From contig JBQLZK010000012.1 in assembly GCA_052168235.1 (NCBI GenBank), forward strand, positions 32,001-96,000: a stretch of 64,000 bases of DNA. Reading direction: 5' to 3'. Shown here one piece after another: positions 20,515-39,776 of the stretch. The position numbers and the translations under genes are program-made. Every line of letters starts with the position of its first letter. Within the stretch, counting starts at the first letter, position 1. The DNA is from Thainema sp. Lineage in GTDB: Bacteria > Cyanobacteriota > Cyanobacteriia > Phormidesmidales > Phormidesmidaceae. The notes below the pieces were generated by a model. The model made no database searches, had not been told where the DNA came from, and was given only the letters and a program-made list of their open reading frames with translations.

Positions 20515-23500
20515 CTACCAAGGGCTACCCACCAAGGTAAAGGCTGACCAGTAAAACGGATGCGATAAATCGGAATTACCGACACTCTCTTGACCCTCCT
20601 GCCTATCGAGCGGTGGCGAAAAGCCGAATTCCTGGGCTTCCTCAATTGTCCTCTCGTCTATCTGCACTTGGCCTTGCAGCATCGCGATCTGGGTTTGGCG
20701 GAGCGCTTCTGCTTTGATGGGTGAGGTTTGCAGCTGATTGTAAAACTCTGTCATTAAAGCCAGTGTTCCCTCGTCGCTGACGTACCAAAGGCTAGCAAGG
20801 GCCGATTTGACTCCCGCCTGGAGCGCTAGCCCTGCAAAACCCAGTTCAGCATCTTCATTGCCAATAGCCGTGCGACAAGCGCTGAGCACCAAGAGTTCAA
20901 CGGGTGGCTCATTTAAGCCCAGTTCTCGGAGTTCACTGAGTTTGAGCCGCTGGTCATTAAACTGAATAAACGAATTGCTGGGATCACCAGGCAGAAATTC
21001 GGCGTGACTGGCAATGTGAATAATGCCAAATGGCGTTATTTGCCGTTCCTTTTTCAAGTTATCGATGGTGAACGCCTCGTCTACTAGCGTTTCACCTGTC
21101 CACGTGTCGCCGATGGCCGCGAGTTCAACGGGGACAGCAGGCAAAGCCGGTAAATCCTTGAATTTATCAGTGCCCATTGCCAATACTTGACTGTTACGCA
21201 CATCTTCATAGCGTGTGTCGATGAGATTCAGGCTCGGCATTAGCCCTAAACTGTACTGCTCAATCAAAAATTGCTGACCATCATATAGGGCTGCGACGGG
21301 TAGCGATCGCAACTTGGAGGGCATGATGAAGGCAATATTTTCAACTTCCTGAGCGACCAAATCAGCTTGTAGTGTGCCGATGATCCACTGATAAAGCTGC
21401 TGAGCAGACTGACGATAAGCCGTGGATTGAATGAGGCGCGGATCGGTCAGTTGAGTTTGTAAATCAACGGCTGCGGCTTCTACCTGTTGACGAGTGATGC
21501 CTGGAACCCGACGGCGCACGGGAGGCTGATTGGCAGTCACCAACAGCAGTTCGAGTTCATCGGTAGGCTGAGGTGCCAGATCGAATGCAATGCCGCGAGA
21601 CTGGTCTGAACGATTTAAATAGTTGGCAATTTCCTGAGAAGCCGTTGCTTCCAACTCCGAAAATCCTGGATTGACTGCTAAGGTTGCGGGCAAATAGTTG
21701 ACATAGATCAGCGCGGGCTCGATGCCCGTTTTGTCGGCGATATCCTGTAAGACTGCTTGAGCTTCATCAATGGTAATCGGCGGTAGCACCTCGCCTCCCG
21801 AAGGATTTTCATCGACATCTAAGGGCGGTTCCCCTCCGCAGAATGGTGGACACACCGGATCTTGAAACGTGATGTCTTCGGGTTCGGGTTTCGGTTCAGG
21901 GTTCGGGTTTGGGTTTGGGTTCGGGTTTGGTTCGGGTATTTCTCCAGTTTGGAAGGTGATGGTAACAGCTGCCGAATCTGCTAAACCATCATTCACAACC
22001 AGCGTGAATGCATCAATCGCCGTTGTGGCTGTCCCAGCAGGCACATAGATTAGCGTTTCGCTCTCGGTGACTGTATCACCTGCTAGCACGGGCGTAACAC
22101 CATCCGCTCGGAAGAGTTCACCGTCCAAAATGCTGTCAATCTGATATGTCAAGTTGTCGGCGTTGCTGTCGCCAGTAGCGGGAGTAAAACTCGCAATCGT
22201 GAACAAGATAGGGGCATTGGTTGGCGAGGACAGACTATTTGTTGTTGTACTGAGATTGGGAGCAATGTTATTAAATGTGATGCTGATGGTGCCATTGGTA
22301 GCCGTTTCTGTTCCCGCATTTGGGAATGTGGCTAGAGGTGCGATCGCATCTGCATTGGTGACGATATCACCTGCGGTTCCATTGGTTGACGCATCACCGA
22401 CTGTAAACGGCACGTTATCCGGGCCACCGTCATGGGTAATGGCAACAGTGCCGCCTGCTGTTGAACCTTCAGCATTAATCGTTCTGCCTAGCAGATCTTG
22501 CCCTGTCCCTTGTACCGTGCCGTCACTTGCGGTAACGGTAACGTTATTGGCGATGCCAGGGCCAGCAAGAGAGCTTGCGCTGGTATCAATCCGAGTAAAT
22601 TGAATGTTGCTTTGCCCCGGCGTTGCGCCAGCGATTAGTTGCACTTCTCCTGCCTGAGCGGTTGACGCTGGAGTTGTTGCGGTCGCGATCACATTGGCTG
22701 CTGTAATACTTTGTCCGGCTTGGACAGTGATGTCACCTGCGATCGCATTCAAAGTAGACTCAACACCTGGTACAAAACCAGGATTCATTTCAGCGGATGT
22801 ATCCAAGTCACCAACCGTAACCGAACCCGCCGATGAAATAATTTGAATCTCTCCACCCTGGGAAAAAATGCCAAAGTCGATTTGAGGATCTGAGACCACC
22901 AGTGTTGTGATTGCTCCATTCGCCGTGATGTCACCACTGGCCTGTAGGGTTACGTCTCCACCTTCGCCGCCATAGGCATTTAAGGAAGAAGTATCAATGG
23001 CAGCCACTTCGATTGCGCCGCTTGGGGCCAGAATCGTAACATCACCGCTGGTATCTGGCCCAAACTCCGAATCGGTGCCAGTGAGAATGGTGCCGCCGAT
23101 GTCTACATTTCCGCGCGCATCGACCACCACATCACCACCATATCCACCAAACGGCGATGATGTATCGATGGTGCCGCCAACGGTGATATTACCGCCAGCG
23201 ACGGCATTGGGGGCATATTGAGTCGTTAAGAAAACCTCAGTGAGATTATTGGGGCTAAACGGAGCAACCTGAATATTGCCGCCAATCGTGATGTTGGCTG
23301 CTGTTGGTGCAGCGGTTAGGACAGGATTCCCAGGCGTAAAGCCGGAACCGGGTGGTGGAATAAGGGGCGCACCTCCTATTGCTGTTGTACCAGCCCGAAT
23401 ATCCAGTGTTGGCACACTGGCACCATCAATGTTAATTGCCGTGCCGTTGGACAAGCCAATATTGTTTTCAGTAATTGAATCGACTGCATCCGGTGCATTA

Positions 23501-25635
23501 ATGGTGATGTTGCCTGTAACTGTGACGCTTCCACCCGCAAATATATGCAGGGAAGCTCCAGTGTAGCTATCAAACGAGACGTTACCTGCCGAGCGAACAA
23601 CCGGATCATAGGGGCTGAACCAACTGCCCTCGCTGCCATCTAGCGTTTCAATTTGGAAGTTGCCGCCTGACCAGTAATGAGCGTCGCCACCAACGGTATT
23701 GGCCGATCGCAAAGTTAAATCATTACCTGCAACGAGGCCACTTTGGTCATGATTAAGGGCAAAAATATCGATTTGCTGATTGCCCTGAACGGTTAAGTCA
23801 TTGCCTGCCGAGAGTAAAACCGGATTGTCTACCGTATCGCGAATCTGTACCGTATCGCCAGCTTGCAGCGTCAGATTGCCTGTCGTAACAACGGTACTTT
23901 CCGGCAAAAATAGGCTTTGTTGGGCAGAGAACAAGGCGCGATCGCTGTTGGCCGATTGCACCATCACATCACCTGCATTAACTGAGGAGCCACTAGCGGC
24001 CAGGACAACTTGACCCTCGCTGGTGATTTGAATCTGATCGGCATCCGCAAACTGTCCAGTTAGCAACTCTGGCAGGGAGAGAACGGGTAACGTCCAGGTA
24101 TTATCTGCGCTGGGAGAACTGGTGAGAGGCTGAACTTCTAAACTGAGTAAGTTTCCGGGCTGGCTAATTTGGACTAGGCTTTCACCCGGTACGGCGGCAA
24201 CGGTTAGCGCTCCATTGGGGGCTGATAGCTTTCCGGTGCTGACGACAGAACCACCGAGAAGCGTTAGTGAGCCATTCGTTACCGTTAAATTGCCGAGATT
24301 TGCGATCGCACCTGGTTCTGCCACTGTAAAACGATAGCCATTCGGTTCACCCACCAAGCTGCTGTAGTCATTGGTGCCAATCGCATTCCACCAGCCGTTG
24401 CCAAACCGTAGGCCATCTGCGGTGGAGACAGTTAGCGAACCAGGCAAATCGAGCCTTGCATTGGCTCCAAATAAAATGCCGCTGGGATTAATCAAATACA
24501 AATTGGCGTTGCTACCCGTAAGCTGAAGCAAACCATTGATCACCGACGCATCGCCGCCCATAATTCGGCCCAAAACGTTCATCGTTTCGGGTGGAGCAAT
24601 GAAGTTCGCGCTTTCGTTGGACTCTAGGCCAAACCGATCAAAGCTGTGGAACAGGTTAGCGCCATCGCTGGAAGATGAGCCGCCCGTGATTTGATACTGA
24701 CTGCCACTGGGTGAAACGATCGTGCCCGTACCATCAGCAGCGGGTGTGATGGACTGTGCGATGAGGTTGGTGTCAGAAGTTAGTCCCACTGGATTGAGCG
24801 TATTGCCCCAGGTTGGGGTTGCCCAGCCGAGCCAAGGAAGTGCGATCGCAGCTACAGCCGAAGCCGCAACGGGTAATGCACGGCGGCGTAATCTAGCAGG
24901 TTGATTAACCCGATCAACGATGAGCCGCTGTCGTCGATTCAGCGCTTGTTCCACCGCACAAAAGGCCCAGTGGGTTTGCTCAGCGGCTTTGCGATGGGAA
25001 TTATTGGCCGCGTAATACCGATAGAAATAGAGCGGCTTTTTCAGCGGATAAACATCTGTCACTTCCGACAGCCGCAAACAGAGGTCGTAATCGTAAGCGT
25101 AGGGAAAGGCGAGGTGAATGCCGCCAATTTGGTCATATACCGAGCGGCGCAGCAGCCGGAAGTGGAAGGTGATGAACTTGTGCAGCAGGGCTTCTCGCGA
25201 ATAGGGAATCTGGCAGCGAGAGCCGAGTCCGGTCACTTGACTCTCGGCGTCCATCACTAAATAGTCGGTGTAGACCATGCCGACGCGGGGATGGGATTCT
25301 AGGACGGCTACCGTTTCGGCCAATGCGGTCGGTGCCAGGATGTCGTCGCTGTCTACCCAGCCGAGGTAGCGTCCAGTTAACTGTGCGATCGCAGCCGTGC
25401 GGGAGCGAGGAATACCCTGGTGTGGTGCGGCGATTACCCGAATTCGCTGATCCTGTGCTGCAAACTGCTGGGCAATCTCGACGGAGCGATCGGTTGAGCC
25501 ATCGTCCCAAATAATCAGCTCAAAATCGGTAAACGTCTGAGCTAACACACTTTTAATTGCCGTTGCCAAGTAGCGATCGCGGTTGCGATTCGTAATCAGC
25601 AGCGAAACAAGTGGTGAGACAGGAGCAGTCGTCAT
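20515..25635 (-). CDS. Fusion of a GT2 glycosyltransferase, a filamentous-haemagglutinin (TPS) domain, beta-helical repeats and a CHAT caspase-like protease
   Basis: N-term DDGSTD/WVDSDD/DYDLCLRLSE; NLFHSF..., LINPSGILFG; PNPNPN linker; CHAT dyad HIASHAEF and LSACRTA; ends HPFYWSAFTLVGSPW. Confidence 0.88.
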   Translation of the reverse strand: MTTAPVSPLVSLLITNRNRDRYLATAIKSVLAQTFTDFELIIWDDGSTDRSVEIAQQFAAQDQRIRVIAAPHQGIPRSRTAAIAQLTGRYLGWVDSDDILAPTALAETVAVLESHPRVGMVYTDYLVMDAESQVTGLGSRCQIPYSREALLHKFITFHFRLLRRSVYDQIGGIHLAFPYAYDYDLCLRLSEVTDVYPLKKPLYFYRYYAANNSHRKAAEQTHWAFCAVEQALNRRQRLIVDRVNQPARLRRRALPVAASAVAAIALPWLGWATPTWGNTLNPVGLTSDTNLIAQSITPAADGTGTIVSPSGSQYQITGGSSSSDGANLFHSFDRFGLESNESANFIAPPETMNVLGRIMGGDASVINGLLQLTGSNANLYLINPSGILFGANARLDLPGSLTVSTADGLRFGNGWWNAIGTNDYSSLVGEPNGYRFTVAEPGAIANLGNLTVTNGSLTLLGGSVVSTGKLSAPNGALTVAAVPGESLVQISQPGNLLSLEVQPLTSSPSADNTWTLPVLSLPELLTGQFADADQIQITSEGQVVLAASGSSVNAGDVMVQSANSDRALFSAQQSLFLPESTVVTTGNLTLQAGDTVQIRDTVDNPVLLSAGNDLTVQGNQQIDIFALNHDQSGLVAGNDLTLRSANTVGGDAHYWSGGNFQIETLDGSEGSWFSPYDPVVRSAGNVSFDSYTGASLHIFAGGSVTVTGNITINAPDAVDSITENNIGLSNGTAINIDGASVPTLDIRAGTTAIGGAPLIPPPGSGFTPGNPVLTAAPTAANITIGGNIQVAPFSPNNLTEVFLTTQYAPNAVAGGNITVGGTIDTSSPFGGYGGDVVVDARGNVDIGGTILTGTDSEFGPDTSGDVTILAPSGAIEVAAIDTSSLNAYGGEGGDVTLQASGDITANGAITTLVVSDPQIDFGIFSQGGEIQIISSAGSVTVGDLDTSAEMNPGFVPGVESTLNAIAGDITVQAGQSITAANVIATATTPASTAQAGEVQLIAGATPGQSNIQFTRIDTSASSLAGPGIANNVTVTASDGTVQGTGQDLLGRTINAEGSTAGGTVAITHDGGPDNVPFTVGDASTNGTAGDIVTNADAIAPLATFPNAGTETATNGTISITFNNIAPNLSTTTNSLSSPTNAPILFTIASFTPATGDSNADNLTYQIDSILDGELFRADGVTPVLAGDTVTESETLIYVPAGTATTAIDAFTLVVNDGLADSAAVTITFQTGEIPEPNPNPNPNPNPEPKPEPEDITFQDPVCPPFCGGEPPLDVDENPSGGEVLPPITIDEAQAVLQDIADKTGIEPALIYVNYLPATLAVNPGFSELEATASQEIANYLNRSDQSRGIAFDLAPQPTDELELLLVTANQPPVRRRVPGITRQQVEAAAVDLQTQLTDPRLIQSTAYRQSAQQLYQWIIGTLQADLVAQEVENIAFIMPSKLRSLPVAALYDGQQFLIEQYSLGLMPSLNLIDTRYEDVRNSQVLAMGTDKFKDLPALPAVPVELAAIGDTWTGETLVDEAFTIDNLKKERQITPFGIIHIASHAEFLPGDPSNSFIQFNDQRLKLSELRELGLNEPPVELLVLSACRTAIGNEDAELGFAGLALQAGVKSALASLWYVSDEGTLALMTEFYNQLQTSPIKAEALRQTQIAMLQGQVQIDERTIEEAQEFGFSPPLDRQEGQESVGNSDLSHPFYWSAFTLVGSPW

Positions 25636-26907: not shown

Positions 26908-28188
26908 TTAAGCGCTAATCGTAGACTTGTACATTGCTTCGCGGGTGGCGACCATACCCTGGACGAGGCGATCCATTTCCTCGCGGGTGTGGAGCGCATT
27001 CGCAGTCACGCGGATGCGGGGCTTGGCAATGAACCAGATGGGAGAAACCCAGATGCCGTGCGTGTCCATTAGCTGGCGAGCAAAAACCTTAGGATTAATA
27101 TCCACAGGTAGCAGAATGGGTAACACATTGGTTTCACCAATGACTTCGAAATCATTGGCCGCAAGCTGCGATCGCAGATAGCGAGTATTTTCCTGCAGGC
27201 GCTGCACCAGTTCCGGGGACTGACGCACGCGGCGAATGCTCTGGAGGGCGGCTGCCGTTAGCGGTGGCGCGAGAGAAATCGTGCCAATCGACGTAGGCGA
27301 TACGTTCAATAGCGGCTTTAGCTCAGCGGTAGCGGAACTAATCGCAGCCCCAGCAGACGCGGCAAACTTCGAGAATGTGGTCATGATGATTGGCTCAACG
27401 CCGCGATCTAGCGCATATTGAGGCGTGATGCCAAAGTGCTCATAAACACCGCGTCCAGTTGCACCAATGGCTCCACTAGCATGGGCTTCATCCATCACTA
27501 AAGTTGTATCCTCATAGGCCGAGAGGATATCAATCATCTCCGGCAGGGGCACAACGTCCCCATCCATTGAGAACACAGCGTCAGAAATCACCAAAATGCG
27601 ATCGCCCGGGCGGGCATAACGCTTCAGCTTGCGGGCCAAATCTTCCATATCGCAGTGGCGGTAGGCCCGCACCCGTACCCGTGGGCTATGGCCAAATAGC
27701 TTGCCAGAGCGTGTACCTGCGTTTGTAACAGCGGAAATAATGCAACCGTGGTTGAGCACATCCGTCAAAATCAGCGTTTCGCGGGTGTGCTGAAATCCCG
27801 GCACGGGAATGGCTAAATGACAATAGGCATCCATCAGCGCCTGTAGCGCCATCCACGCATTCAAAAATAGCTGCGTGTGCGGTAAATGCTTAAAGTCCGA
27901 AATTTCATCTTCGAGTTGGCGATGGAGATCGATGCGACCGCTCAAGACAGAGCAAGAGCTATTGGATGTCCCGTAGTGCTGAATCGAATCAATTGCAGCT
28001 TGCTGAACGGATTTGTCTTGAACTAACCCGAGGACATCGTTGGTGCAGAAGGTCAGCACGCGACGCCGGATGCCAGTGGCAGATTCCTCAATATCGACGA
28101 TGTTGCCATGTTTGGCATGACAAATGTATTCGTCCGGATCAAGGCCACTTTGATACCACTTTTGGACGTATTCTTTAACAACTTGCAC
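26908..28188 (-). CDS. PLP-dependent alpha-oxoamine synthase family protein (BioF/Kbl/SPT/CqsA-like)
   Basis: NDVLGL, DVLNHGCI, YRHCD, DAVFSMDGD, DEAHASG, TFSK (PLP Lys), RIRVT. Confidence 0.85.
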   Translation of the reverse strand: MQVVKEYVQKWYQSGLDPDEYICHAKHGNIVDIEESATGIRRRVLTFCTNDVLGLVQDKSVQQAAIDSIQHYGTSNSSCSVLSGRIDLHRQLEDEISDFKHLPHTQLFLNAWMALQALMDAYCHLAIPVPGFQHTRETLILTDVLNHGCIISAVTNAGTRSGKLFGHSPRVRVRAYRHCDMEDLARKLKRYARPGDRILVISDAVFSMDGDVVPLPEMIDILSAYEDTTLVMDEAHASGAIGATGRGVYEHFGITPQYALDRGVEPIIMTTFSKFAASAGAAISSATAELKPLLNVSPTSIGTISLAPPLTAAALQSIRRVRQSPELVQRLQENTRYLRSQLAANDFEVIGETNVLPILLPVDINPKVFARQLMDTHGIWVSPIWFIAKPRIRVTANALHTREEMDRLVQGMVATREAMYKSTISA

Positions 28189-28966
28189 AGCTCACTCCTC
28201 TCACCTAGTTCCTCAATCGCCAAGCTCTGTGTTTCATGAAATCCAAATCGTTTCAATGTAATGAGATCGCTCGGTATTCTGCTCTAACGTATCGGATGAT
28301 ATCCCGCTTGGATCAGGGTGATCCTACAGATTTTTAACTGGCACACCACTTATCCAAAGGCACATGCTACAAAGCAGCTTGCTATAGAATGCCCCTTATT
28401 TCCTAGAGGGGTAGAACCCTGTCAGAGTAAGCACCAATTATAGAACCGGACGATTGTATCAATCCTTTCTGGCTTCTTTACAAATGTCAACTATTGCTAA
28501 GCATACGCTGATTTCGACCGATAGGCTATAAAACGCTCGAATCTAGCGGGATTAGGGGATTTACGTGCTCTGGAGCTGAGCTTGACGACCTGTCGCATTT
28601 ATTTCTTAAGGCACAGTTATCGTTTAGCTCCAAAAAATTATTGGGCAGTAGTCTGTCAACTTTATTTTGCTGAGTTTGATGGCTGGTGTGCTGAACGAAG
28701 CGCAGCCCATCAGCCTGAATATAACAGCGGTAATTTAGGTCGTGATTTTTGAGGATACCAATCCGTGTTCTTGGAACATATCCAAGTCCAAGGGTTGTGG
28801 ATTAAATGGCCTGTAAACCCTTCCATCCTTGGGGGCATGGCATTATGTGTCGCTGCCACAAAGACTTCACCTGATTAAATCCGCGTTCCTGAGTGGATTG
28901 CCTTTAGAGATAAAGTGTCTAATATGAATGTGAACGGCGCGATTGAGGAAGTACGGGGGAAATACT

Positions 28967-29962
28967 ATGTCATCTGATCCAGCCACATCTACGCCACCTG
29001 TTGACCCCAACCGCACAGGCCGTCAATCTTCGGTTGAGACGCAGTATTACACCTGGCGTGGCCATCATTGTGCCTATGATGTGCTCACCCGAGATCGCAC
29101 CTTAAATAATCCGAGTATTTCCGACGCGTCCGATTCCGATCAACCCGCTATTCTGCTGCTCCATCCGATCGGTGTTGGCTTATCGCGCCAGTTTTGGCAG
29201 CGGTTTGCCGAGGCTTGGTTTGAGGCTGGAGAAACCGCTCCTCTATATAATCCCGACTTATTGGGCAATGGTGAGAGCGGCATGCCCCATGTGGCTTACT
29301 ATCCAGCCGACTGGGCCGAACAGCTAGAGTACTTTATCCAAACGGTGATTCGCCGCCCCGTTATTTTGATTTCCCAAGGGGCGCTGTTTCCAGTTGCGAT
29401 CGCGCTGACTCAGCGATCCAACAGCCTAGAACTTATCCAAGGCTTAATTCTGGCTGGCCCTCCGGCCTGGTCAATCATGACTACTCCCTCACCCACATGG
29501 CAAAATCGCCTGCTGTGGAGTCTATTCGATTCTCCCCTGGGTCAGGCGTTCTATCGCTATGCCCGCCGCGAAGATTTTTTGCGCTCCTTTTCAATTAAGC
29601 AGCTTTTTGATGATGCCGCCGATGTCGATGCTGAGTGGCTCAACATGCTGCAAGCGGGTGCTACCGACCCAGCCAGCCGTCATGCTGTCTTTTCCTTCCT
29701 AGCAGGCTTTTGGCGGCGAGACTACACGGAAGCGATGCAGCGGATTCCGCAGCCAACGCTAGTTGTCTTTGGTGAAACAGCCTCTAGTATTAGTCGCTCG
29801 GGTAAAAACGAATCGCCACAAGATCGAATGACGGATTATCTCAAGCATTTACCCCATGTAGAAGGACGATTTATGTCAGGGCGCAATGTGCTGCCTTATG
29901 AGCGGCCAGTTGAATTTGTGCAAACGATATCATCCTTCGTTCACCAGCTTGCTCAAGCCTAG
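28967..29962 (+). CDS. Alpha/beta-hydrolase-fold protein with degenerate catalytic residues
   Basis: LLLHPIG, PDLLGNGES; elbow reads SQGAL; the usual GH position reads GRN. Confidence 0.8.
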   Translation: MSSDPATSTPPVDPNRTGRQSSVETQYYTWRGHHCAYDVLTRDRTLNNPSISDASDSDQPAILLLHPIGVGLSRQFWQRFAEAWFEAGETAPLYNPDLLGNGESGMPHVAYYPADWAEQLEYFIQTVIRRPVILISQGALFPVAIALTQRSNSLELIQGLILAGPPAWSIMTTPSPTWQNRLLWSLFDSPLGQAFYRYARREDFLRSFSIKQLFDDAADVDAEWLNMLQAGATDPASRHAVFSFLAGFWRRDYTEAMQRIPQPTLVVFGETASSISRSGKNESPQDRMTDYLKHLPHVEGRFMSGRNVLPYERPVEFVQTISSFVHQLAQA

Positions 29963-30908: not shown

Positions 30909-33900
30909 ATGATGTTAGGCCACTCTTTCAGTCACACCACTATTCATGAAGCGATTGAACACCAAGCGCGCCAAACACCGCAGGCTAAAGCAATCATTTG
31001 GCAACAAACGAGCTTAACCTATGCAGAACTTAATCAGCGGGCCAATCAGTTAGCCCACTATTTAATTCATTCAGGTGTTCAACCAGAATGTTTTGTAGGA
31101 GTTTGTTTAGAGCGATCGCTTGATATGGTGGTGGCGCTGTTGGCGATTCTTAAGGCTGGAGGGGCTTATGTACCTTTGGATCCCACCTATCCTTCCGATC
31201 GCCTCGCTTTCATTATTGAAGATACTCAGCTTCCTTTGGTCATTACTCAAGTGAGCCTGCAACCGTGTCTACCGGAGTATCAGGCCAAAGCTATCTATCT
31301 AGATACCGAGCAGTCAACGCTGGAGCAGTTTTCGATCCAAAATCCAGACACTTGGCAAAATCCGGCTCAGGGCGTGAACCCTCACAACCTGGCTTACGTG
31401 ATTTACACCTCTGGGTCAACTGGCCGACCCAAAGGTGTCGCGATTGAACACCGCAATGCGATCGCACTGATTGACTGGGCACGAGAACTCTATACTTCTG
31501 AACAGTTGGCTGGCGTACTGGCCGCAACGTCACTCTGCTTTGATTTGTCGATTTTTGAACTGTTCGTTACGTTAAGCTGTGGCGGCACGGTGATTTTAGC
31601 CAAGGATGCTCTCCAGTTGCCCCGTCTACCGGCTGCGAATCAGGTGACGTTAATTAATACAGTGCCATCTGCGATCGCAGAACTGTTGAGGATTGACGGT
31701 ATTCCAACTTCTGTTAAAACCATTAATCTTGCGGGCGAACCACTACAAAATACGCTAGCCCAGCAGCTTTATCAGCTTGACCACGTTGAGCAAGTTTATA
31801 ACCTATATGGGCCGTCCGAAGATACCACCTACTCTACTGTCGCCCTAGTCCAAAAAGGCGCAACAACTTCGCCCTCAATTGGCCGTCCGATCAGCAATAC
31901 CCAAATTTATCTGTTAGACAGCCGCCTCAACCTGGTGCAGGAAGGAGCGGAAGGCGAAATCTATATCAGTGGAGCAGGCATTGCCCGGGAATATCTCAAC
32001 CGACCGGATTTAACCGCTGAACGATTTTTGCCCAATCCCTACAATAAGCAAGCACCCCATGATCGACTCTACAAAACCGGGGATTTAGCGACTTACTCTG
32101 CCGACGGCACACTCAACTACTTAGGGCGAATTGATCATCAAGTCAAAGTGCGCGGTTTTCGGATCGAACTGGGTGAAATTGAGTTTGCGCTGAGCGAGTA
32201 TCCCGACATTCGTCAGGTTGTCGTCGTGGCCCGAGGTGATGCACCAGACCGCACGAATAAGCGATTGGTTGCCTATGTTGTACCAGATGTTGTACCAGAG
32301 ATAAATGAGCATCTAACAAGCATTACACCTCGAAGCTTACGAGACTATCTTCAGCAGAAACTCCCAAACTACATGATCCCGTCAGCGTTCATGCTGCTGG
32401 ATGAGATGCCTTTGACCTTAAATGGCAAGGTCGATCGACGGGCTCTCCCTGTTCCAAAATGGTCGCGTATGGAAGAAGGCACCTATGTTCCTCCCAGCCG
32501 TCCACTAGAGATTCAACTGGCGTACATTTGGTCTCAGCTACTGGGTGTGGAGCACATTGGCATCCATGACGGATTCTGTGAGTTAGGTGGGCATTCACTC
32601 CTCTCGGTTCAGCTCATGGCGCAACTCCAGCAAACTTTAAATGTTGAAGTTCCGTTGGAAGTCTTTTTAGAAACTCCAACCATTGCAGGACTAGCCCAAG
32701 CGATTGAATATCTTCAGCAAGGCCAGCAATTATTCACTTCGATTGATAGCATCGAAGCCAGTATTCAGCTTGATGCAAGGGTTCAACCTCAGCATCAGTT
32801 AACTGCACCCGTTATGAACTTCTTTTTAACAGGTGCGACTGGTTTCCTAGGCGGTTTTATTCTGCATGAGCTGCTTGAACAGACCCATGCCGATGTTTAT
32901 TGTTTGGTGCGAGCCGATAGTTTGGAAGAGGGCCGAGCCCGATTGCAACAGGTGCTTCAGCGTTATTACCTGTGGGAAGAAGCCTTCGACTATCGCATTA
33001 TTCCGGTACTGGGAGACTTGAGTAAGCCAGAACTCGGAATTGAGCCTGCTCTGTTTCAGCGGCTGAGCGAAAAAATTGATGCCATTTATCACTGCGGTGC
33101 TTGGGTCAACATGGTTTATCCCTACGCCACTCTGGAGCCTACCAATGTTAAAGGAACGCAGGAAGTTTTGAGACTAGCCAGTCAAAGCCATCCTAAGCCC
33201 GTTCACTATGTCTCTACGACCGATGTGTTTTCTACTGCTGCCCGAGCAGGTCTGCATTCAGTTTGTGAACTTACCCCCATTGGGCCAGCTAAGGCTCTGT
33301 ATAGCGGCTATGCTCAAACGAAGTATGCGGCAGAACGTCTCGTCATGGCAGCGCGCGATCGCGGTTTACCGGTTGCGATTTATCGACCTGGAAATATCAT
33401 TGGTTCTCAACAAACGGGGATCTGTCAGACCAGTGACTTCGTCGCAAAGCTACTCAAGGGCTGCCTGCAAGCCGGAGCTGCTCCCCAGATTGAAGCAAGT
33501 TTAAACCTGTCGCCGGTTGATTTCGTCAGTCGCACCATCGTGCGGCTATCTTGCCACACCCTCCCGCAGGGACAAGCATTTCTGGTCGTTAATCCTGATT
33601 CGTTGTCCTGGAGCCAATCTATAGACCGGTTGAGACAAGCTGGATATTCTTTGCAAACCCTACCCTATGAGGCTTGGTACAGCCTCCTTCTGAAGCAGAT
33701 TGCTCAAACCACTTCTATAAAAGACCCCGATAGTAACGTATTGGCTCCTTTGGTTTCACTTCTCACTTACCAAGGCTTTGTACAAAAGCTGTTAGGAGCC
33801 CTTGAGTTTGATCAATTGAGGCAGCTTAGTCAATTAACTCGCTATGCGATTGAGTATCCTCCATCAGCCATAGATTCACTCGATTTATATATTTCTTACT

Positions 33901-33956
33901 TGAGTCAGTGTCGTTTCCTCCCCAAGCCAGTGCTTTCTAGCCAACTCATGGCTTGA
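30909..33956 (+). CDS. Stand-alone NRPS-like A-T-R enzyme (adenylation, carrier, thioester reductase), predicted Ala-specific
   Basis: YTSGSTGRPKG, NLYGPSE, YKTGD, QVKVRGFRIELGEIE, NGKVDR; carrier GGHSL; reductase TGATGFLG and YAQTK; no C domain. Confidence 0.93.
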   Translation: MMLGHSFSHTTIHEAIEHQARQTPQAKAIIWQQTSLTYAELNQRANQLAHYLIHSGVQPECFVGVCLERSLDMVVALLAILKAGGAYVPLDPTYPSDRLAFIIEDTQLPLVITQVSLQPCLPEYQAKAIYLDTEQSTLEQFSIQNPDTWQNPAQGVNPHNLAYVIYTSGSTGRPKGVAIEHRNAIALIDWARELYTSEQLAGVLAATSLCFDLSIFELFVTLSCGGTVILAKDALQLPRLPAANQVTLINTVPSAIAELLRIDGIPTSVKTINLAGEPLQNTLAQQLYQLDHVEQVYNLYGPSEDTTYSTVALVQKGATTSPSIGRPISNTQIYLLDSRLNLVQEGAEGEIYISGAGIAREYLNRPDLTAERFLPNPYNKQAPHDRLYKTGDLATYSADGTLNYLGRIDHQVKVRGFRIELGEIEFALSEYPDIRQVVVVARGDAPDRTNKRLVAYVVPDVVPEINEHLTSITPRSLRDYLQQKLPNYMIPSAFMLLDEMPLTLNGKVDRRALPVPKWSRMEEGTYVPPSRPLEIQLAYIWSQLLGVEHIGIHDGFCELGGHSLLSVQLMAQLQQTLNVEVPLEVFLETPTIAGLAQAIEYLQQGQQLFTSIDSIEASIQLDARVQPQHQLTAPVMNFFLTGATGFLGGFILHELLEQTHADVYCLVRADSLEEGRARLQQVLQRYYLWEEAFDYRIIPVLGDLSKPELGIEPALFQRLSEKIDAIYHCGAWVNMVYPYATLEPTNVKGTQEVLRLASQSHPKPVHYVSTTDVFSTAARAGLHSVCELTPIGPAKALYSGYAQTKYAAERLVMAARDRGLPVAIYRPGNIIGSQQTGICQTSDFVAKLLKGCLQAGAAPQIEASLNLSPVDFVSRTIVRLSCHTLPQGQAFLVVNPDSLSWSQSIDRLRQAGYSLQTLPYEAWYSLLLKQIAQTTSIKDPDSNVLAPLVSLLTYQGFVQKLLGALEFDQLRQLSQLTRYAIEYPPSAIDSLDLYISYLSQCRFLPKPVLSSQLMA

Positions 33957-33978
33957 GCTTTCTTCAATGCAACAAGCT

Positions 33979-34023
33979 AAAGGTTTACTTACTGAGACAT
34001 CACAGCAGTCAGTAAACCTTTTT
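33979..34023 (+). terminator. Hairpin after the NRPS-like gene
   Basis: AAAGGTTTACT...AGTAAACCTTT(TT), ~22 nt past the stop. Confidence 0.5.
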
Positions 34024-34231
34024 CCAAACACTTTTGAATCCAATATTTACCGATATTTATATGCGGCCAAACAATTTTCTCTGCGCAATGTTATTTCAAA
34101 AGTCAACTTGGGTACTTTGAAGGTGAGCAAGAGAGTCAGTTGATGCCGTGGCTCAAGCCCATGCCAAGGTATCAACTGAAGCGTCATACGAATAAAAGTT
34201 GAAAATAACTTACCGAGTTTGTGGCGTAACC

Positions 34232-37162
34232 ATGAAAAAAATCGGCTTTTCAAAAGAGAATTGGGACGGAATCCATAATGCCCAGCAATATAAAGGATCC
34301 ATCACTCGAAAGACTCTGGTTACGACCGCTATCAGTATCAGTGTTGTGATCGTTGCTTCTACGGGCATCGCCTATCGGCAACTTGTTTCAAGGATCACAG
34401 ATGAAACCTTAGCTCAAGTTGAAAAGTATGCTCAGCTCCGAGCAGAACGGGAACGAGCCGTTTTTCAACTAGCAGAAGATAACCATATTTTGCTCAAAGA
34501 GGCTTTACTCACCGAGCTTGAACAAAATCGCGATCGCGCCAGTAGCATATCTGCATTTAACCAGCTTTTTGAAAGACAGGCAGACGGTACATTTCGCAAT
34601 CGAGAAGAATTCTTTAACGTCGAAGAAACCCCTGGTATTTTCTTAGGTGCCAACGTTAACGTTGACCAAAATATGCAGCACCGAGTTATCTCATACTTCA
34701 ATGTTCTAGAAGCCTATGGGCCAGCTTGGCGAAACCGGTTTGTCAATACCTATATGCAGATTCCAGAGAATGGAATTGCAATCTACATGCCAACCTATCC
34801 CTGGGTTCAAAATGCGCCATCTGATCCTGCATTTAGAGTCACGGATGATGAGTCATTCTATATCACGGACAAGGAACATAACCCAATTCGCGAGACAGTA
34901 TGGACAGGTATTTACTATGACCAAGTTGCACGTGCTTGGATGGCATCCTGTGTGACTCCAGTTGATGTGAATAGTCAGCATATCGCCACGATTGGGCACG
35001 ATATTCTAATTACTGAACTGCAAGATCGAACGATTAATGAAACCCTAGAGGGAACTTACAACATGATCTTTCGGGCAGATGGTCGTTTGGTGGCCCACCC
35101 CGAATTAATGGATGAAATTCAACAGAACCGAGGTAAATTTAATATCTCTCAGTCTGACGATTCTCGGCTTCGCCAAATCTTTGAACTTGTAACTCAAAAG
35201 TCAGACGGTCAAATTATCTTAGATCACGTTGAACATGATGAATACTTAGCTGTTACTTCAATCGAAGGCCCCGATTGGTATCTCGTGACGGTTTTTCCAA
35301 AGGCTTTAGTTCAGCAACAGGCATTCATAACAGCACGCCTAGTTTTACTCCTCGGTTTCTTTTCGTTATTGATTGAAGTCATCGTTATTTTCTTCATTCT
35401 GCGACGCCAAATTTCCACACCGCTTGCTAGTCTAATGGCAGCAACTGAAAGTGTTGCTAGTGGAAATTTGGACATCGATCTCAATACAGATCGTCAAGAT
35501 GAGCTTGGTCGTTTGGCTTTTCTCTTCAACAAAATGGCCCAGCAGTTAAAGGCATCATTTGAAAAGCTAGCCAAATCAAATGAAATACTTGAAGCTCGTG
35601 TTGAAGAACGTACGGCTGAATTAAAGCAGGCTAAGGAAGTGGCTGATGCTGCTAATCAAGCCAAGAGCGAGTTCTTAGCAAATATGAGTCATGAATTAAG
35701 AACACCGCTAAATGGCATTTTGGGCTATGCTCAAATTTTAAGACGTTCTGATACATTTACGGCTGATGAAAAACAAGGATTGAATATTATCTATCAGTGT
35801 GGATCGCATCTGTTAACGTTGATTAACGATATTTTAGATCTTGCAAAAATTGAAGCTCGAAAGATGGAGCTACATCCAACTCATATTCATTTTCCATCTT
35901 TTCTTCAGGGTGTATACGAAGTTTGTCAGATCAGAGCTCAGCAGAAACAGATCGATTTCACTTATCGGTCTGATCCAAATCTGCCAACTAGTATTTTATC
36001 CGACGAAAAACGACTCAGGCAGATCCTGATTAATCTCATCAGTAATGCAATTAAGTTTACAGAGTATGGCTCTGTCGTATTTAGCGTACAAGTTATCGAT
36101 TCCGTTGCTCAATGTGCCAATAGTCCATCTCAATTGAATCCAGAAATAGCGGCTGTAAATAAATCTACAGATCAAAGCGATATATTGAAAGACTCAAATA
36201 CGTTAAGAATTCGCTTTGAGGTGCAGGATACTGGCGTCGGTATGACCGATGAACAAGTGCAAAAAATCTTCTTGCCATTTGAGCAGGTTGGCAACGTTAA
36301 GAAGCAATCTGAGGGGACTGGTCTAGGGCTTTCTATTAGTCAAACGTTTGTTCAAATGATGGGTGGTTCATTGAATGTTAGGAGTCAGCTAGGGCAAGGT
36401 AGTACGTTTTGGTTTGACGTTGACTTTTATGAAGTTGAGGCATGGGATGAACAGTCAAAAATCACATCGAATTTAGGCAAGGTTACTGGCTTTGAAGGAT
36501 CTGAGATACCTATCTTGCTCGTTGATGATCGGTGGGAAAACCGAGTTGTCATTCGAAAACTCCTGGAACCACTCGGATTCAAGATTACAGAGGCTGAAGA
36601 TGGTCAAGAGGCTTTAGAAAAAGCAGAGCATTTTCTTCCTCATTTAATTATTACTGATTTAGCTATGCCAGTTATGGGTGGGTATGAGTTGTTAAAAGCA
36701 CTTCAACAAACTGATGTATTAAAAGATATACCTGTCATTATTTCTTCTGCAAGCGTTTTTAATTCAGAACAATATAAAAGTATGAAAGCAGGTGCAAAAG
36801 CCTTCTTAGCTAAGCCTATTCAGGCGGAAGAACTATTTGATGCGCTAGAAAAATATCTAAACATTAAATGGATCTATGAAACCGAAAATCTAGCATTAAT
36901 AGGTCAAGCAGATCATCCTTGTTCTGATATTTTTAGTATTGGAGAGGATGTTTTAGTTCCATCTCATGAAGAACTTATTCAGCTTTATGAATATGCTCAA
37001 AAAGGTCGCATACTGAATTTAGAGCAGAGAGTTGAAGAGCTAAGATTGGAAAATCAAGAACTGGCCGCGTTTGCCAGCCAAATTCGTATGTTAACTCGGA
37101 ACTTTAAACTAGAAAGGATTCAAGATTTGTTGAGGGATTATCTCAATGTTGATCCGAAATAG
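34232..37162 (+). CDS. Membrane hybrid sensor kinase: TM-dCache-TM-HAMP-HisKA-HATPase-REC
   Basis: VWTGIYYD...IGHDI (dCache), RQDELGRLA (HAMP), [38 protein letters not shown]. Confidence 0.92.
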
Positions 37163-37243
37163 TGCCGTGAAGCAATTTTTAAGTGTATCCCTGCTGAAAG
37201 ATATTCTGATGAATGAAAATAAACATAAAGTTTGGTGGATAGC

Positions 37244-38689
37244 ATGGTTGATACCGTATGTGATCTTATTCTAATCGTGGATGATAATCCTACTAATCTT
37301 GAGGTTCTCTCTAAGTCAATTAGTAGCACAGGTTATTCTATTGCCGTTGCTACGAGTGGTGAGAATGCTCTTAAGCAGATAGGTTACGAACGACCGTCTC
37401 TCATTCTGCTAGATGTCATGATGCCTGGTATCGATGGCTTTGAAACTTGTCGTCGCCTTAAAGCCGATCCAACAACCAGTGCTATTCCAGTTATTTTTAT
37501 GACGGCTTTATCAGACATTGAAAACAAAATTAAAGGTTTATCTTTAGGCGCAGTTGATTATATTACCAAACCTTTCCAGCAAGAAGAGGTCATTGCTCGG
37601 ATTAAAATTCATTTAAAGATTCAAACGTTAACTCAAACCCTTGCCTGTCAAAATGAACTGTTGCGACAAGAAATTCAGCATCGAGAGCAGGCTGAGGCAC
37701 AGCTGCAATTACTTAATCATGAATTAGAAGTACGAGTTGCAAATAGAACAGCAGAATTATCTACTGCGCTTCATCAGCTACAGCAAACGCAGGTACAGCT
37801 TGTCCAAAAAGAAAAGCTATCAACACTGGGTGAACTGGTTGCAGGAGTCGCCCATGAAATTAACAATCCAATTGGTTTTATTGCCAATAATTTAGAACCG
37901 GCCATGGAATATGTGGCGGATATCGCGCAGGTTATTCGCCTTTATCAACAGAATTATCCGAATCCAAGTATTGAAATCTCCCGATTTGTAGAAGATATTG
38001 ATCTTGATTTTGCTTTGGATGATTTAGCAAAGCTTTTAGCTTCTATGCAACTTGGGACAGAGCGCATTCGGGAAATATCGATGTCCCTGCGCAATTTTTC
38101 TCGCTCGGATACAAAGTGTTTGATGCCTGTTAATATTCATCAGGGATTGGATAGTACACTGCTGATTTTGAAACATCGATTAAAAGAAAATGAGTATCGG
38201 CAGGCTATTAGCGTCGTTCGAAATTACGGAAATCTGCCCGAAATAACGTGTTATCCGGGGCAGATTAATCAGGTTTTTATGAATCTTTTATCTAATGCAA
38301 TTGATGCATTAGATGAAGGTAGTCAATCTAATCAAGTTGTCACCAATACCAATTCAACTCATATATTACCGATTAGTTCTAAGTCTTTAGAACCCACTAT
38401 TTGCATTAGCACAGAGTATGCTGGCGGTAATTGCGCCACAATTCGCATTATCGATAACGGCCCTGGGATGGCAGATACCATTCGCGATCGCTTATTTGAG
38501 CCTCTATTTACTACTAAAAAAGTAAATCAGGGTACTGGTTTAGGACTGTCGATTAGCCGTCAAATTGTGGTTGAGCGACATGGGGGGCAGTTGACGTGCC
38601 AGTCTCACCCTGGCAAAGGCGCTGAGTTTGTGATTGATTTACCAATCAATGCTGAGGTTGCAGCCAGTCAAGCACTACTTGTTTCTTAG
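37244..38689 (+). CDS. Cytoplasmic REC-HisKA-HATPase hybrid kinase
   Basis: LIVDDNPTN, LLDVMMPGIDG, DYITKPF; VAHEINNP, NLLSNAIDA, GTGLGLS. Confidence 0.92.
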   Translation: MVDTVCDLILIVDDNPTNLEVLSKSISSTGYSIAVATSGENALKQIGYERPSLILLDVMMPGIDGFETCRRLKADPTTSAIPVIFMTALSDIENKIKGLSLGAVDYITKPFQQEEVIARIKIHLKIQTLTQTLACQNELLRQEIQHREQAEAQLQLLNHELEVRVANRTAELSTALHQLQQTQVQLVQKEKLSTLGELVAGVAHEINNPIGFIANNLEPAMEYVADIAQVIRLYQQNYPNPSIEISRFVEDIDLDFALDDLAKLLASMQLGTERIREISMSLRNFSRSDTKCLMPVNIHQGLDSTLLILKHRLKENEYRQAISVVRNYGNLPEITCYPGQINQVFMNLLSNAIDALDEGSQSNQVVTNTNSTHILPISSKSLEPTICISTEYAGGNCATIRIIDNGPGMADTIRDRLFEPLFTTKKVNQGTGLGLSISRQIVVERHGGQLTCQSHPGKGAEFVIDLPINAEVAASQALLVS

Positions 38690-39618
38690 GCACCGAGAAT
38701 TTGGTCGTCTAGGGAGAAGTCAACCTCAGCTTGATCTCGGCCAGATGAAAGATAGTCGTTCTGGAAAGAATCCTTTAAGCCTGAAACGAGATCAAACTGG
38801 GGTTGCCAATTGAGTTCGGTTTGAGCTTTATGAATATCGGCAAAAAAGTGTTGTACTCGCATTGGAAATGCTTTGCGCTTGCCAAAATTAAACTGCTTCG
38901 GATCGTAGTGAACCAGTTCCAGCGCAGCGGGATCTTTTCCGGCTGCGATCGCACATGCCTTTGCTAAACCATCAAAGGTCACGTAGCGATCGCCAGAGAT
39001 ATTGTAAATCTGTCCAATAGCTTGAGAATTACCGAGTACAGCTGCCATTGCTTGGGCTAAATCCTGCACATGGCCGAGCTGAGTGATGTGCATACCGTTG
39101 CCGGGAATGGGCACAGTGCGATCTCGGATAACCCGGTCAAAGAACCAGGCTTCGACATCGTTGTAATTCTGTGGGCCGTAGATGTAAACCGGACGAACAG
39201 AGGTGAAGGGGATCTTCTGTTCCGCTAAGTATGTTTCAGTCTCAAATTTTCCTTTGTGGCGACTGTTCGGATCGACGGCATCGGCTTCCCGATGGGGTAA
39301 CTGGTCGGTCTTGAGATACACACCCGCAGAACTAACATAGACAAAATGCTGTACCCGATCGCCGAACAGTTCAACCAAAGGCTTTGTGTCGCTCAGTTCT
39401 CGCCCGTTGTTGTCAAAAATGGCATCAAATGATTGGCCGGATAGCTTATCTTTAAGCTGTGCTGCATCTTTGCGATCGCAGTGAATTTGCTGGATGCCCT
39501 CGACTGGAGCAGGCTTGTTGCCGCGATTGAGTAAAACAACCTCATGGCCTTGCTCAACCAAGATCCGAGTGAGGTACACACCAATAAAGCGAGTACCACC
39601 CATAACTAAAACTCTCAT
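38686..39618 (-). CDS. NAD-dependent epimerase/dehydratase family, CSP41b-like RNA-binding protein
   Basis: MGGTRFIG, DNNGRE, SSAGVY, RPVYIYGPQNYN, KAFPMRVQHFF. Confidence 0.88.
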   Translation of the reverse strand: MRVLVMGGTRFIGVYLTRILVEQGHEVVLLNRGNKPAPVEGIQQIHCDRKDAAQLKDKLSGQSFDAIFDNNGRELSDTKPLVELFGDRVQHFVYVSSAGVYLKTDQLPHREADAVDPNSRHKGKFETETYLAEQKIPFTSVRPVYIYGPQNYNDVEAWFFDRVIRDRTVPIPGNGMHITQLGHVQDLAQAMAAVLGNSQAIGQIYNISGDRYVTFDGLAKACAIAAGKDPAALELVHYDPKQFNFGKRKAFPMRVQHFFADIHKAQTELNWQPQFDLVSGLKDSFQNDYLSSGRDQAEVDFSLDDQILGA

Positions 39619-39776
39619 CCGGCTATCCTCCCAGCGATCACTGCTTTTCATCTTATACCGTTGCGTGATCCGGCCAAATGTCTACTATATTGGGAATCCT
39701 AATACCAGCCCTATAGAAAACGAGCGCTATGGACGAATTCAGTGCTGAGTCTGAAGACTGAGGGGCAGAAATACGC

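Follow-up and report, generated by a model that had tools for sequence, protein, structure and literature searches.

In the CqsA/CqsS and LuxM/LuxN systems, the gene of an autoinducer synthase adjoins that of the membrane hybrid kinase detecting its product, and the signal feeds a phosphorelay. In cyanobacteria, cell-to-cell chemical signalling is poorly defined, and we know of no widely conserved pair of signal synthase and receptor. In this work, we analysed a stretch of 64,000 nucleotides (hereafter, the window) from the cyanobacterium Thainema sp. (GenBank assembly GCA_052168235.1, contig JBQLZK010000012.1, positions 32,001 to 96,000), in which three open reading frames (ORFs) lie on the + strand between positions 30909 and 38689. 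These encode a stand-alone enzyme of the nonribosomal peptide synthetase (NRPS) type with adenylation (A), thiolation (T) and thioester reductase (R) domains, here named ATR, followed by a membrane hybrid histidine kinase (HK1) and a soluble histidine kinase with a receiver domain (HK2). Whereas the synthases of the CqsA/CqsS and LuxM/LuxN systems act by pyridoxal phosphate-dependent acyl transfer or by acyl-homoserine lactone synthesis, and their sensors carry multiple transmembrane (TM) segments, release by ATR would be reductive and NRPS-like, and HK1 displays a double-Cache (dCache) sensor. We present this cassette as a candidate two-gene signal module with a variable third gene; as a system for signalling between cells, it is a strong candidate, yet an unproven one.

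On the synthase side, PvfC displays the A-T-R architecture and uses a small aliphatic amino acid as substrate. At the core of the Pseudomonas virulence factor (Pvf) system, a small NRPS is described as the synthase of a diffusible signal of the autoinducer type (PMC10194917). Unlike ATR, which stands without such genes, Pvf requires PvfA, the diiron N-oxygenase PvfB and PvfD; domains of the pvfA, pvfB and pvfD types were not found by Pfam in 14 scanned proteins of the window, nor among the neighbours of the three related loci described below (L001, L005 and L011). Furthermore, the Pvf receptor is given as unknown and not encoded alongside (PMC10194917), whereas the candidate receptor of ATR is its conserved neighbour; the two systems also belong to different phyla, and the predicted substrate of ATR is alanine. 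Another NRPS-like enzyme, PtNRPS1 from a diatom, is described as reducing a free amino acid to a regulatory amino alcohol, tryptophanol (PMC13194791), but it is eukaryotic, arranged as A-T-R1-R2 with two R domains, uses tryptophan as substrate and has no linked receptor. The pyrazinone synthetases of the AusA type differ in being dimodular (A-T-C-A-T-R, where C stands for condensation), ATR having a single module.

On the receptor side, CqsR of Vibrio cholerae is reported to place a periplasmic dCache_1 domain between two TM helices, followed by kinase and receiver domains, as HK1 does (PMC7046293). According to the same source, this quorum-sensing receptor binds ethanolamine, serinol and L-alaninol (the latter with a shift in melting temperature from 46 to 60 C), whereas D-alaninol is not bound; it needs two pocket Asp residues, equivalent to Mlp37 D172 and D201, and its cognate signal is unknown, as its authors concluded (PMC7046293). 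In HK1, the equivalent Asp 241 is retained together with the acidic pair D217/E218, a comparison made with the published description of CqsR rather than with its sequence. Conversely, the synthase for CqsR is unknown, with no synthase gene reported alongside, whereas HK1 adjoins a candidate synthase and additionally carries a HAMP domain and a conserved four-helix tail. By analogy, the synthase chemistry of the cassette resembles that of Pvf, the receptor resembles CqsR, and the overall logic resembles that of autoinducer synthases encoded beside their sensor kinases. A defining feature of each of the Pvf, AusA and dCache_1AA families was not found in the cassette, which is therefore a member of none of them.

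No prior description of the ATR-kinase pair was found in a search of the main texts of openly accessible papers. In a term search of the main texts of two cyanobacterial genome-mining papers (PMC4247773, PMC12184294), neither histidine kinases nor a stand-alone A-T-R enzyme was mentioned.

Domain anatomy and predicted substrate of ATR

The ATR gene (30909..33956, + strand) encodes 1015 amino acids (aa). Pfam recognized AMP-binding (PF00501, E = 1.9e-83, residues 17-363), AMP-binding_C, PP-binding (PF00550, E = 2.4e-15, residues 540-599) and NAD_binding_4 (E = 1.3e-68, residues 640-877), and the protein scored well above the NCBIfam cut-offs for TIGR01733 (428.5 against 317.4 bits) and for the thioester reductase model TIGR01746 (318.2 against 213.35 bits). 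The A domain (aa 17-513; 30957..32447, + strand), in which the core motifs were located, begins after only 16 residues, and no condensation domain (PF00668) was found by Pfam. A preliminary description of this DNA, made from the letters alone, had made out a single-module A-T-R protein without a condensation domain; Pfam and NCBIfam agree on this, and its coordinates were confirmed. The carrier domain (32526..32705, + strand) harbours the phosphopantetheine attachment site LGGHSLL (residues 559-565), whose Ser 563 is invariant in the 31 aligned orthologues, and the R domain (aa 639-1003; 32823..33917, + strand) displays TGATGFLG (641-648) and the YxxxK pair Y801 and K805, also invariant across the aligned orthologues. 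As read from the sequence, the catalytic motifs of the carrier and R domains are intact. The best solved match restricted to the R domain was MxaA (PDB 4u7w, 1.2e-82), which we take to be an alcohol-forming reductase.

The ten residues lining the A-domain pocket are D212, L213, F216, N250, N273, A275, L299, T307, Y308 and K507, giving the code D-L-F-N-N-A-L-T-Y-K; the mapping to GrsA numbering (PDB 1AMU) was made through McyA2 plus known motif anchors. McyA2 (PDB 8JBR) is the best solved match to the pocket region, aligning with ATR residues 195-520 at 7.4e-112 in phmmer, without gaps over the pocket motifs and with identity at 10 of 10 pocket residues, so the code that the preliminary description had aligned by hand stands unchanged. 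In the literature, the McyA2 code DLFNNALTYK is tabulated as Ala, both predicted and observed (PMC3640908, Table 2), and the C-A didomain of McyA2 is reported to activate L-Ala best and was crystallised with L-Ala (bioRxiv 10.1101/2023.11.13.566838). The alanine specificity that had been proposed is thus supported by code identity with a domain for which L-Ala activation is experimental, and L-alanine is the predicted substrate of ATR. The two proteins differ in their setting, as McyA2 forms a C-A-T-E module inside a large assembly line and ATR is a stand-alone loading-and-release enzyme.

This pocket is strictly maintained in the family. The ten residues are invariant in 31/31 aligned orthologues, and among the 120 proteins listed the whole code is invariant in all 45 stand-alone forms (996-1055 aa, the one from the window included). 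Besides the latter, these comprise 44 clusters of cyanobacterial orthologues with 52-63% identity to ATR; among the matches listed, the best ones to ATR, HK1 and HK2 are all cyanobacterial. Because ATR has no epimerisation domain, the L configuration should be kept, and an L-Ala-specific reductase would make exactly the L-alaninol enantiomer. Sequence alone cannot separate a two-electron reduction to the aldehyde from a four-electron reduction to the alcohol; we infer the product to be L-alaninal or L-alaninol.

Two kinds of relatives display an interrupted A domain. Twenty-two of the 120 listed proteins contain a methyltransferase within it, presumably an N-methyltransferase given its position in the A domain, and all 22 carry the same nine N-terminal pocket residues; none of their longest contigs equals in size a contig of any of the 120 listed HK1-sensor homologues. 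In P0048 (1117 aa) and P0059 (1111 aa), a PilZ domain lies inside the C-terminal subdomain of the A domain, at the same place as the methyltransferase insertion, and each of these two proteins is found on a contig equally long as that of an HK1-sensor homologue. The PilZ fold typically binds cyclic di-GMP, and to our knowledge an adenylation domain interrupted by PilZ has not been described. A fragment 64% identical to ATR also appeared on a 1554-nt contig (L002) binned as Candidatus Saccharibacteria, which probably is of cyanobacterial origin and was placed in the wrong bin.

The HK1 kinase and its sensor pocket

The two kinases that had been placed 3' of ATR in the same orientation were recovered as ORFs at their positions, with domains assigned by Pfam. 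The HK1 gene spans 34232..37162 on the + strand within an ORF open from 34199; its start was set at the ATG at 34232 because the database form comprises 976 aa. Pfam, hydropathy and motifs define a membrane hybrid histidine kinase with, in order, a TM helix (aa 40-59), an extracytoplasmic dCache domain, a second TM helix (379-401), HAMP, HisKA with His 498, HATPase_c, a receiver (REC) with Asp 820 and the four-helix tail. The phosphorelay motifs lie at 497-505 (H-box, SHELRTPLN) and at 817-828 (receiver).

The sensor (aa 60-378; 34376..35332, + strand) scored 40 bits with the Pfam dCache_1 model, under the 45-bit cut-off. An AlphaFold model of residues 40-395, built with 29 relatives, reached a mean predicted local distance difference test (pLDDT) of 92.1 and a predicted template-modelling score (pTM) of 0.84, and its top Foldseek neighbours in the PDB were the amino-acid-binding dCache domains of the chemoreceptors Mlp37, Mlp24, PctA, PctB and CtaA (E ~1e-10, probability 1.00). 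According to the model, the HK1 sensor has a double-Cache fold between the two TM helices. Pairwise sequence similarity to solved domains was weak (E 0.0007-0.3), and a profile search aligned the C-terminal half of the pocket motif only, in which Y-Y-D of HK1 (239-241) aligns with Y-x-D of Mlp24, Mlp37 and a proline-binding dCache. The predicted order of elements, namely a strand, a short helix starting from the Trp, a helix, and a strand bearing the Asp, fits the mapping.

Conserved sensor residues include W202, D217/E218, F220, Y239, Y240 and D241. Across 120 sequences of the sensor family, D241 and W202 are found in every one, as is an acidic residue at position 217, with E218 present in 118, F220 in 116 and Y196 in 115. 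In PctA, Y121, R126 and W128 are reported to hold the ligand carboxylate, and Y144 and D173 the amino group, with R126A causing a 61-fold loss of affinity and D173A abolishing binding (PMC8915833). At position 200, matched to PctA R126 by sequence pattern, HK1-type sensors most often display Tyr (85 of 120), Asn (15) or Val (8), and Arg is not among the five commonest residues. Amine-binding dCache domains are described as keeping the aromatic pair and the Asp while losing the aromatic and basic positions at the motif start (PMC10589655). HK1 shares the fold, the Trp and the amino-binding Asp with PctA, Mlp37 and PctD (families dCache_1AA and dCache_1AM), and yet it is not a dCache_1AA member because the Arg of the amino-acid motif is absent; of the dCache_1AM motif, which also comprises an insertion with an Arg-Asp pair above the pocket and an aromatic cation-pi residue, the Asp and aromatic positions common to both motifs are present, and PctD ranked 50th in the fold search. 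Such a pocket would suit a ligand bearing a primary amino group but no carboxylate. It thereby favours an amine of the alaninol or alaninal type, and fits 2,5-dimethylpyrazine less well because this compound has no protonatable primary amine.

Recurrence of the ATR-kinase pair and its variable surroundings

A scan of genome contigs with the motifs CFDLS[VI]FE and NLYGP[ST]EDT returned at least 78 loci. Among the 78 listed, 8 match ATR across the A, T and R domains, and the remaining 70 are different NRPS genes whose A domain is of the Ala type. By ORF calling and Pfam, the 8 divide into 3 stand-alone genes and 5 terminal modules of larger NRPS genes, L004, L041 and L049 being assigned to the terminal modules by ORF length only. 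The stand-alone genes are those of Desmonostoc geniculatum (L001, 1043 aa), a metagenome-assembled genome (MAG) of Microcystaceae (L011, 960 aa) and Tolypothrix tenuis PCC 7101 (L005, 1453 aa, its A domain interrupted by a methyltransferase). In all three, a dCache hybrid kinase lies directly 3' on the same strand, against none of the 75 other listed loci. These kinases are 57% (L001), 42% (L011) and 42% (L005) identical to HK1, and follow after gaps of 5-11, 13 and 247 nt, respectively. No near-full-length HK1-like match was found in the other 75 listed loci, L063 and L025 offering only short matches to kinase cores or receivers. By simple arithmetic that ignores relatedness, the chance of drawing exactly those 3 of 78 loci is 1 in 76,076. 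The preliminary description had proposed a linkage survey as its own refuting test, and its expectation held for the dCache hybrid kinase but only in part for HK2, which is intact in one of the three loci.

A broader view was obtained from contig sizes. Among the matches listed, 16 of the 44 clusters of ATR orthologues have a longest contig exactly as long as that of an HK1-sensor homologue. Seven of these matched contigs measure only 8,046 to 27,402 nt, therefore both 3-kb genes must sit close together on them. Names also agree in seven matched pairs, from cf. Phormidesmis sp. LEGE 11477, a Phormidesmis MAG, Nostoc sp. ChiQUE01b, Gloeocapsopsis sp. IPPAS B-1203, Stenomitos sp., Spirulina sp. 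SIO3F2 and Scytolyngbya sp. HA4215-MV1, and the named genera span Nostocales, Leptolyngbyales, Chroococcidiopsidales and Spirulinales. The figure of 16/44 is a lower bound, because at least 7 ATR contigs are shorter than 6 kb, the clusters were collapsed at 90% identity, and the best 120 of 190 sensor matches were listed. Plasmids yielded no ATR orthologue, the best match being 47.5% identical, and the two plasmid matches examined were terminal modules of multimodular NRPS genes with no kinase alongside. A single plasmid match to the HK1 sensor, a 32%-identical sensor-HAMP-GGDEF protein of Indioceanicola without an ATR gene in its vicinity, is too remote to inform on the pairing.

At L005, the methyltransferase-bearing synthase is paired with a sensor only 23% identical to that of HK1, the whole kinases being 42% identical; on this one locus, the divergence would look like co-variation of ligand and receptor. 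Another kind of pairing between a reductase-terminated NRPS and a kinase was observed at L032 (719-13006) and L036 (505-13033), where a dimodular A-T-C-A-T-R enzyme (2113 and 2123 aa) adjoins a protein of ~1830 aa that combines Ser/Thr-kinase, AAA, GAF and histidine-kinase regions, with a kinase core 46-49% identical to HK2. We take this layout to be typical of pyrazinone synthetases.

The third gene of the cassette, HK2 (37232..38689, + strand), encodes a soluble REC-histidine kinase with REC Asp 61 and H-box His 208, identified by Pfam and motifs. Its start is probably the ATG at 37244; the database form has 481 aa, Pfam recognizes REC and HATPase_c, and no hydrophobic segment was found. L005 has an intact HK2-like neighbour (56% identical). 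At L001 (15990-16240), a stop-ended HK2-like receiver remnant of ~80 residues, 68% identical over 72, lies directly 3' of the HK1 orthologue and is followed by a DUF29 gene on the other strand; it looks like a decayed third gene. In L011, the corresponding position is occupied by a single receiver and then a HisKA-receiver-PP2C phosphatase. HK2 is thus a variable accessory and not a fixed partner of the cassette. The HK2 family is large (7943 matches at E <= 1e-40), and among its best 120 matches four equal-sized contigs were found, of 11,027 nt (also that of the closest HK1 homologue), 39,932 nt (another HK1 homologue), 16,402 nt (an ATR cluster) and 13,924 nt (a methyltransferase form). Receiver-PP2C (SpoIIE) phosphatases recur 3' of the cassette, at 15763-17801 in L011 and 21273-23858 in L005, the latter locus also displaying a REC-LuxR regulator, and in Microcoleus proteins an HK1-type sensor is fused to SpoIIE; partner switching or a phosphatase output may be a common downstream route. 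The tail of HK1 after its receiver (residues 885-987; window positions 36851-37159, + strand) is predicted with confidence as four short helices. Pfam found no match in it even at E 10, thus no histidine phosphotransfer (HPt) domain, and its sole invariant residue is a Pro, with no invariant His.

The 275-nt spacer between ATR and HK1 contains an inverted repeat at 33979..34021 (+ strand). The preliminary description had noted a hairpin here, and folding confirms it as real, with a stem of 11+4 bp, -18.4 kcal/mol and z = -3.37, none of 200 shuffled sequences folding as well. The terminator scan did not call this hairpin, its loop measures 11 nt and its T run lies mostly inside the stem; it is possibly a partial terminator or a processing site, and not a textbook terminator. 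A low-G+C block (33800..38600) covers exactly HK1 and HK2, with a G+C content of ~0.34-0.44 against ~0.47-0.53 on either side. G+C at third codon positions is 0.34 in HK1 and 0.33 in HK2, compared with 0.46 in ATR and 0.48-0.58 in seven neighbouring genes. The cassette genes of L001, L005 and L011 all agree with their background of ~40% G+C. Among the matches listed, the closest relatives of HK1 (81% identical) and HK2 (79%) lie together on one 11-kb contig, and that of ATR is 63% identical. Together, this suggests that the kinase pair was acquired or replaced at the ATR position, perhaps horizontally.

Other neighbours of the cassette do not recur: counterparts of the GT2, BioF-like, hydrolase, BON-like, SDR, HAD and YceG genes of the window were not found in the stand-alone loci. 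The preliminary description had seen no tailoring genes adjacent to ATR. This needs a small correction, as in the window Pfam identifies an alpha/beta-hydrolase gene upstream of ATR (28943-29962) and, abutting HK2, a gene of the short-chain dehydrogenase/reductase (SDR)/epimerase family (38686-39651, minus strand), both without counterparts in the related ATR loci. Further upstream lies a BioF/Kbl-family alpha-oxoamine synthase gene (26908-28188, minus strand), which stays under every NCBIfam cut-off (best, 223 against 426 bits) and matches the CqsA-type autoinducer synthase model weakly (88 against 428 bits); given these scores and its absence from the related loci, a role for it was rejected. 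Elsewhere in the window (20515-25635, minus strand), a 1706-aa protein displays an unusual fusion of a family 2 glycosyltransferase (GT2), a TPS secretion domain and a C-terminal CHAT protease-like domain. Rfam searches of the whole window at gathering thresholds found no RNA families.

Proposed function and alternative explanations

We consider it highly probable that ATR and the HK1-type kinase are functionally coupled. As for the nature of this coupling, we propose that cytoplasmic ATR would adenylate L-alanine, attach it by a thioester bond to its own carrier domain and release L-alaninal by NAD(P)H-dependent reduction, perhaps proceeding to L-alaninol, (S)-2-amino-1-propanol. The small amine would leave the cell and bind the membrane-distal pocket of the extracytoplasmic dCache domain of HK1, with Asp 241 and a second acidic residue holding the amino group and no Arg for a carboxylate. 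Binding would switch HK1, in one direction or the other, between kinase and phosphatase states, and the phosphoryl signal would be passed on to receiver proteins, putatively HK2 in this window and a REC-PP2C phosphatase elsewhere; the system might show autoinduction or depend on cell density. That the ATR product, an alanine-derived amine without carboxylate and most simply L-alaninol or L-alaninal, is the ligand of HK1 is a proposition for which we hold the chances to be about even.

Several observations weigh against this proposal. The direct neighbourhood evidence comprises 3 loci, and the 16/44 figure is a proxy taken from equal contig sizes and not from coordinates. The N-terminal half of the amino-acid motif in the HK1 sensor was mapped by sequence pattern and secondary-structure order, not by residue-level superposition. 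Considering the 120 ATR proteins listed, eight large contigs or genomes that harbour HK1-type sensors have no size-matched ATR cluster, namely those of Nostoc linckia NIES-25, Calothrix PCC 7507, Chroococcidiopsis TS-821, Scytonema millei, Nostoc sphaeroides, Nodularia NIES-3585, Synechococcus PCC 7502 and Cylindrospermum stagnale, therefore the receptor may exist without the synthase; fusions of this type of sensor to PP2C phosphatase and to STAS outputs exist as well. The base composition of the two kinases in this window is foreign to that of ATR, from which the 275 nt and the hairpin also set them apart. Finally, Pfam identified no exporter, DNA-binding regulator or HPt domain in the cassette, and how the loop would close from signal to gene expression is therefore not apparent.

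The strongest competitor of a self-made signal is that HK1 acts as a cluster-situated regulator, sensing an external cue resembling an amine or amino acid and controlling ATR, whose product would have a non-signalling role, such as a volatile pyrazine or a reactive amino aldehyde in defence or allelopathy. We regard this as rather unlikely, even though conserved adjacency reveals coupling and not its direction, biosynthetic genes often adjoin their regulators, and HK1-type sensors that seem to be ATR-free in several genomes, or attached to other outputs, behave as a general environmental sensor would. A precedent lies in CqsR, reported to respond to host-derived ethanolamine as an external cue (PMC7046293). 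Such a regulator, however, would require a means of acting on the ATR promoter, and the cassette has no DNA-binding response regulator for it; with only 5-13 nt between the genes in L001 and L011, ATR and the kinase would then be made together, instead of one being controlled by the other from a separate promoter. In addition, it would be a coincidence that an alanine-derived amine without carboxylate matches a pocket with the Asp and without the Arg, and that the sensor diverges where the synthase gains a methyltransferase.

It has also been considered that the kinase senses 2,5-dimethylpyrazine or a dihydropyrazine arising from spontaneous dimerisation of alaninal, in parallel to the signals of pyrazine and pyrazinone type in other bacteria. 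Once released by R domains, amino aldehydes can indeed dimerise, and the A-T-C-A-T-R enzymes of L032 and L036 stand beside a large multi-domain histidine kinase; moreover, NRPS enzymes of the PvfC type are tied to autoinducer production (PMC10194917). Nevertheless, the pocket keeps the Asp that is described as binding a protonated amino group (PMC8915833, PMC10589655), which a pyrazine does not offer, and the methyltransferase forms, if their insert is an N-methyltransferase, would give N-methyl-alaninal, which should not be able to aromatise to a pyrazine, making this an improbable ligand. Least credible, to the point that we would be surprised by it, is the absence of any functional link, in which adjacency would reflect inherited gene order or chance and ATR would serve ordinary metabolism. 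Histidine kinases are indeed very numerous in cyanobacteria, as the size of the HK2 family alone illustrates, and the kinase pair of this window differs from ATR in base composition. Against this, the pair is found again in four named orders amid neighbours that otherwise all differ, the split between stand-alone and other loci is complete among those listed, and the seven short matched contigs hold both genes close together; replacement or acquisition of the kinase pair at the ATR position would itself argue for selection on the pairing.

Returning to the proposal of a self-made signal, we tentatively extend it to a reading that is possible although on balance doubtful, in which many cyanobacteria would use a one-enzyme, one-receptor language, with L-alaninol or L-alaninal as signal and the adjacent kinase as its dedicated receptor. 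This language would include "dialects", such as a methyltransferase-interrupted synthase with a divergent sensor, an A domain gated by PilZ, and receptor "solos" that eavesdrop without synthesising the signal. The cassette is minimal (one synthase and one receptor), conserved in at least four orders and testable with cheap, commercial L-alaninol. If only the coupling were true, with the kinase regulating the enzyme, a conserved regulatory unit would be gained for a widespread orphan biosynthetic gene. If the signalling proposal is true, amino-alcohol signalling would gain its first pair of synthase and receptor, amino alcohols would join the known classes of self-made signals, and NRPS-like reductases would act as signal synthases outside proteobacteria. 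It would also provide a synthase paradigm for dCache receptors like CqsR of Vibrio, hinting at the kind of molecule that receptors of this type evolved to detect, and, for the cyanobacteria themselves, it would offer a handle on the collective behaviour of filamentous and mat-forming species.

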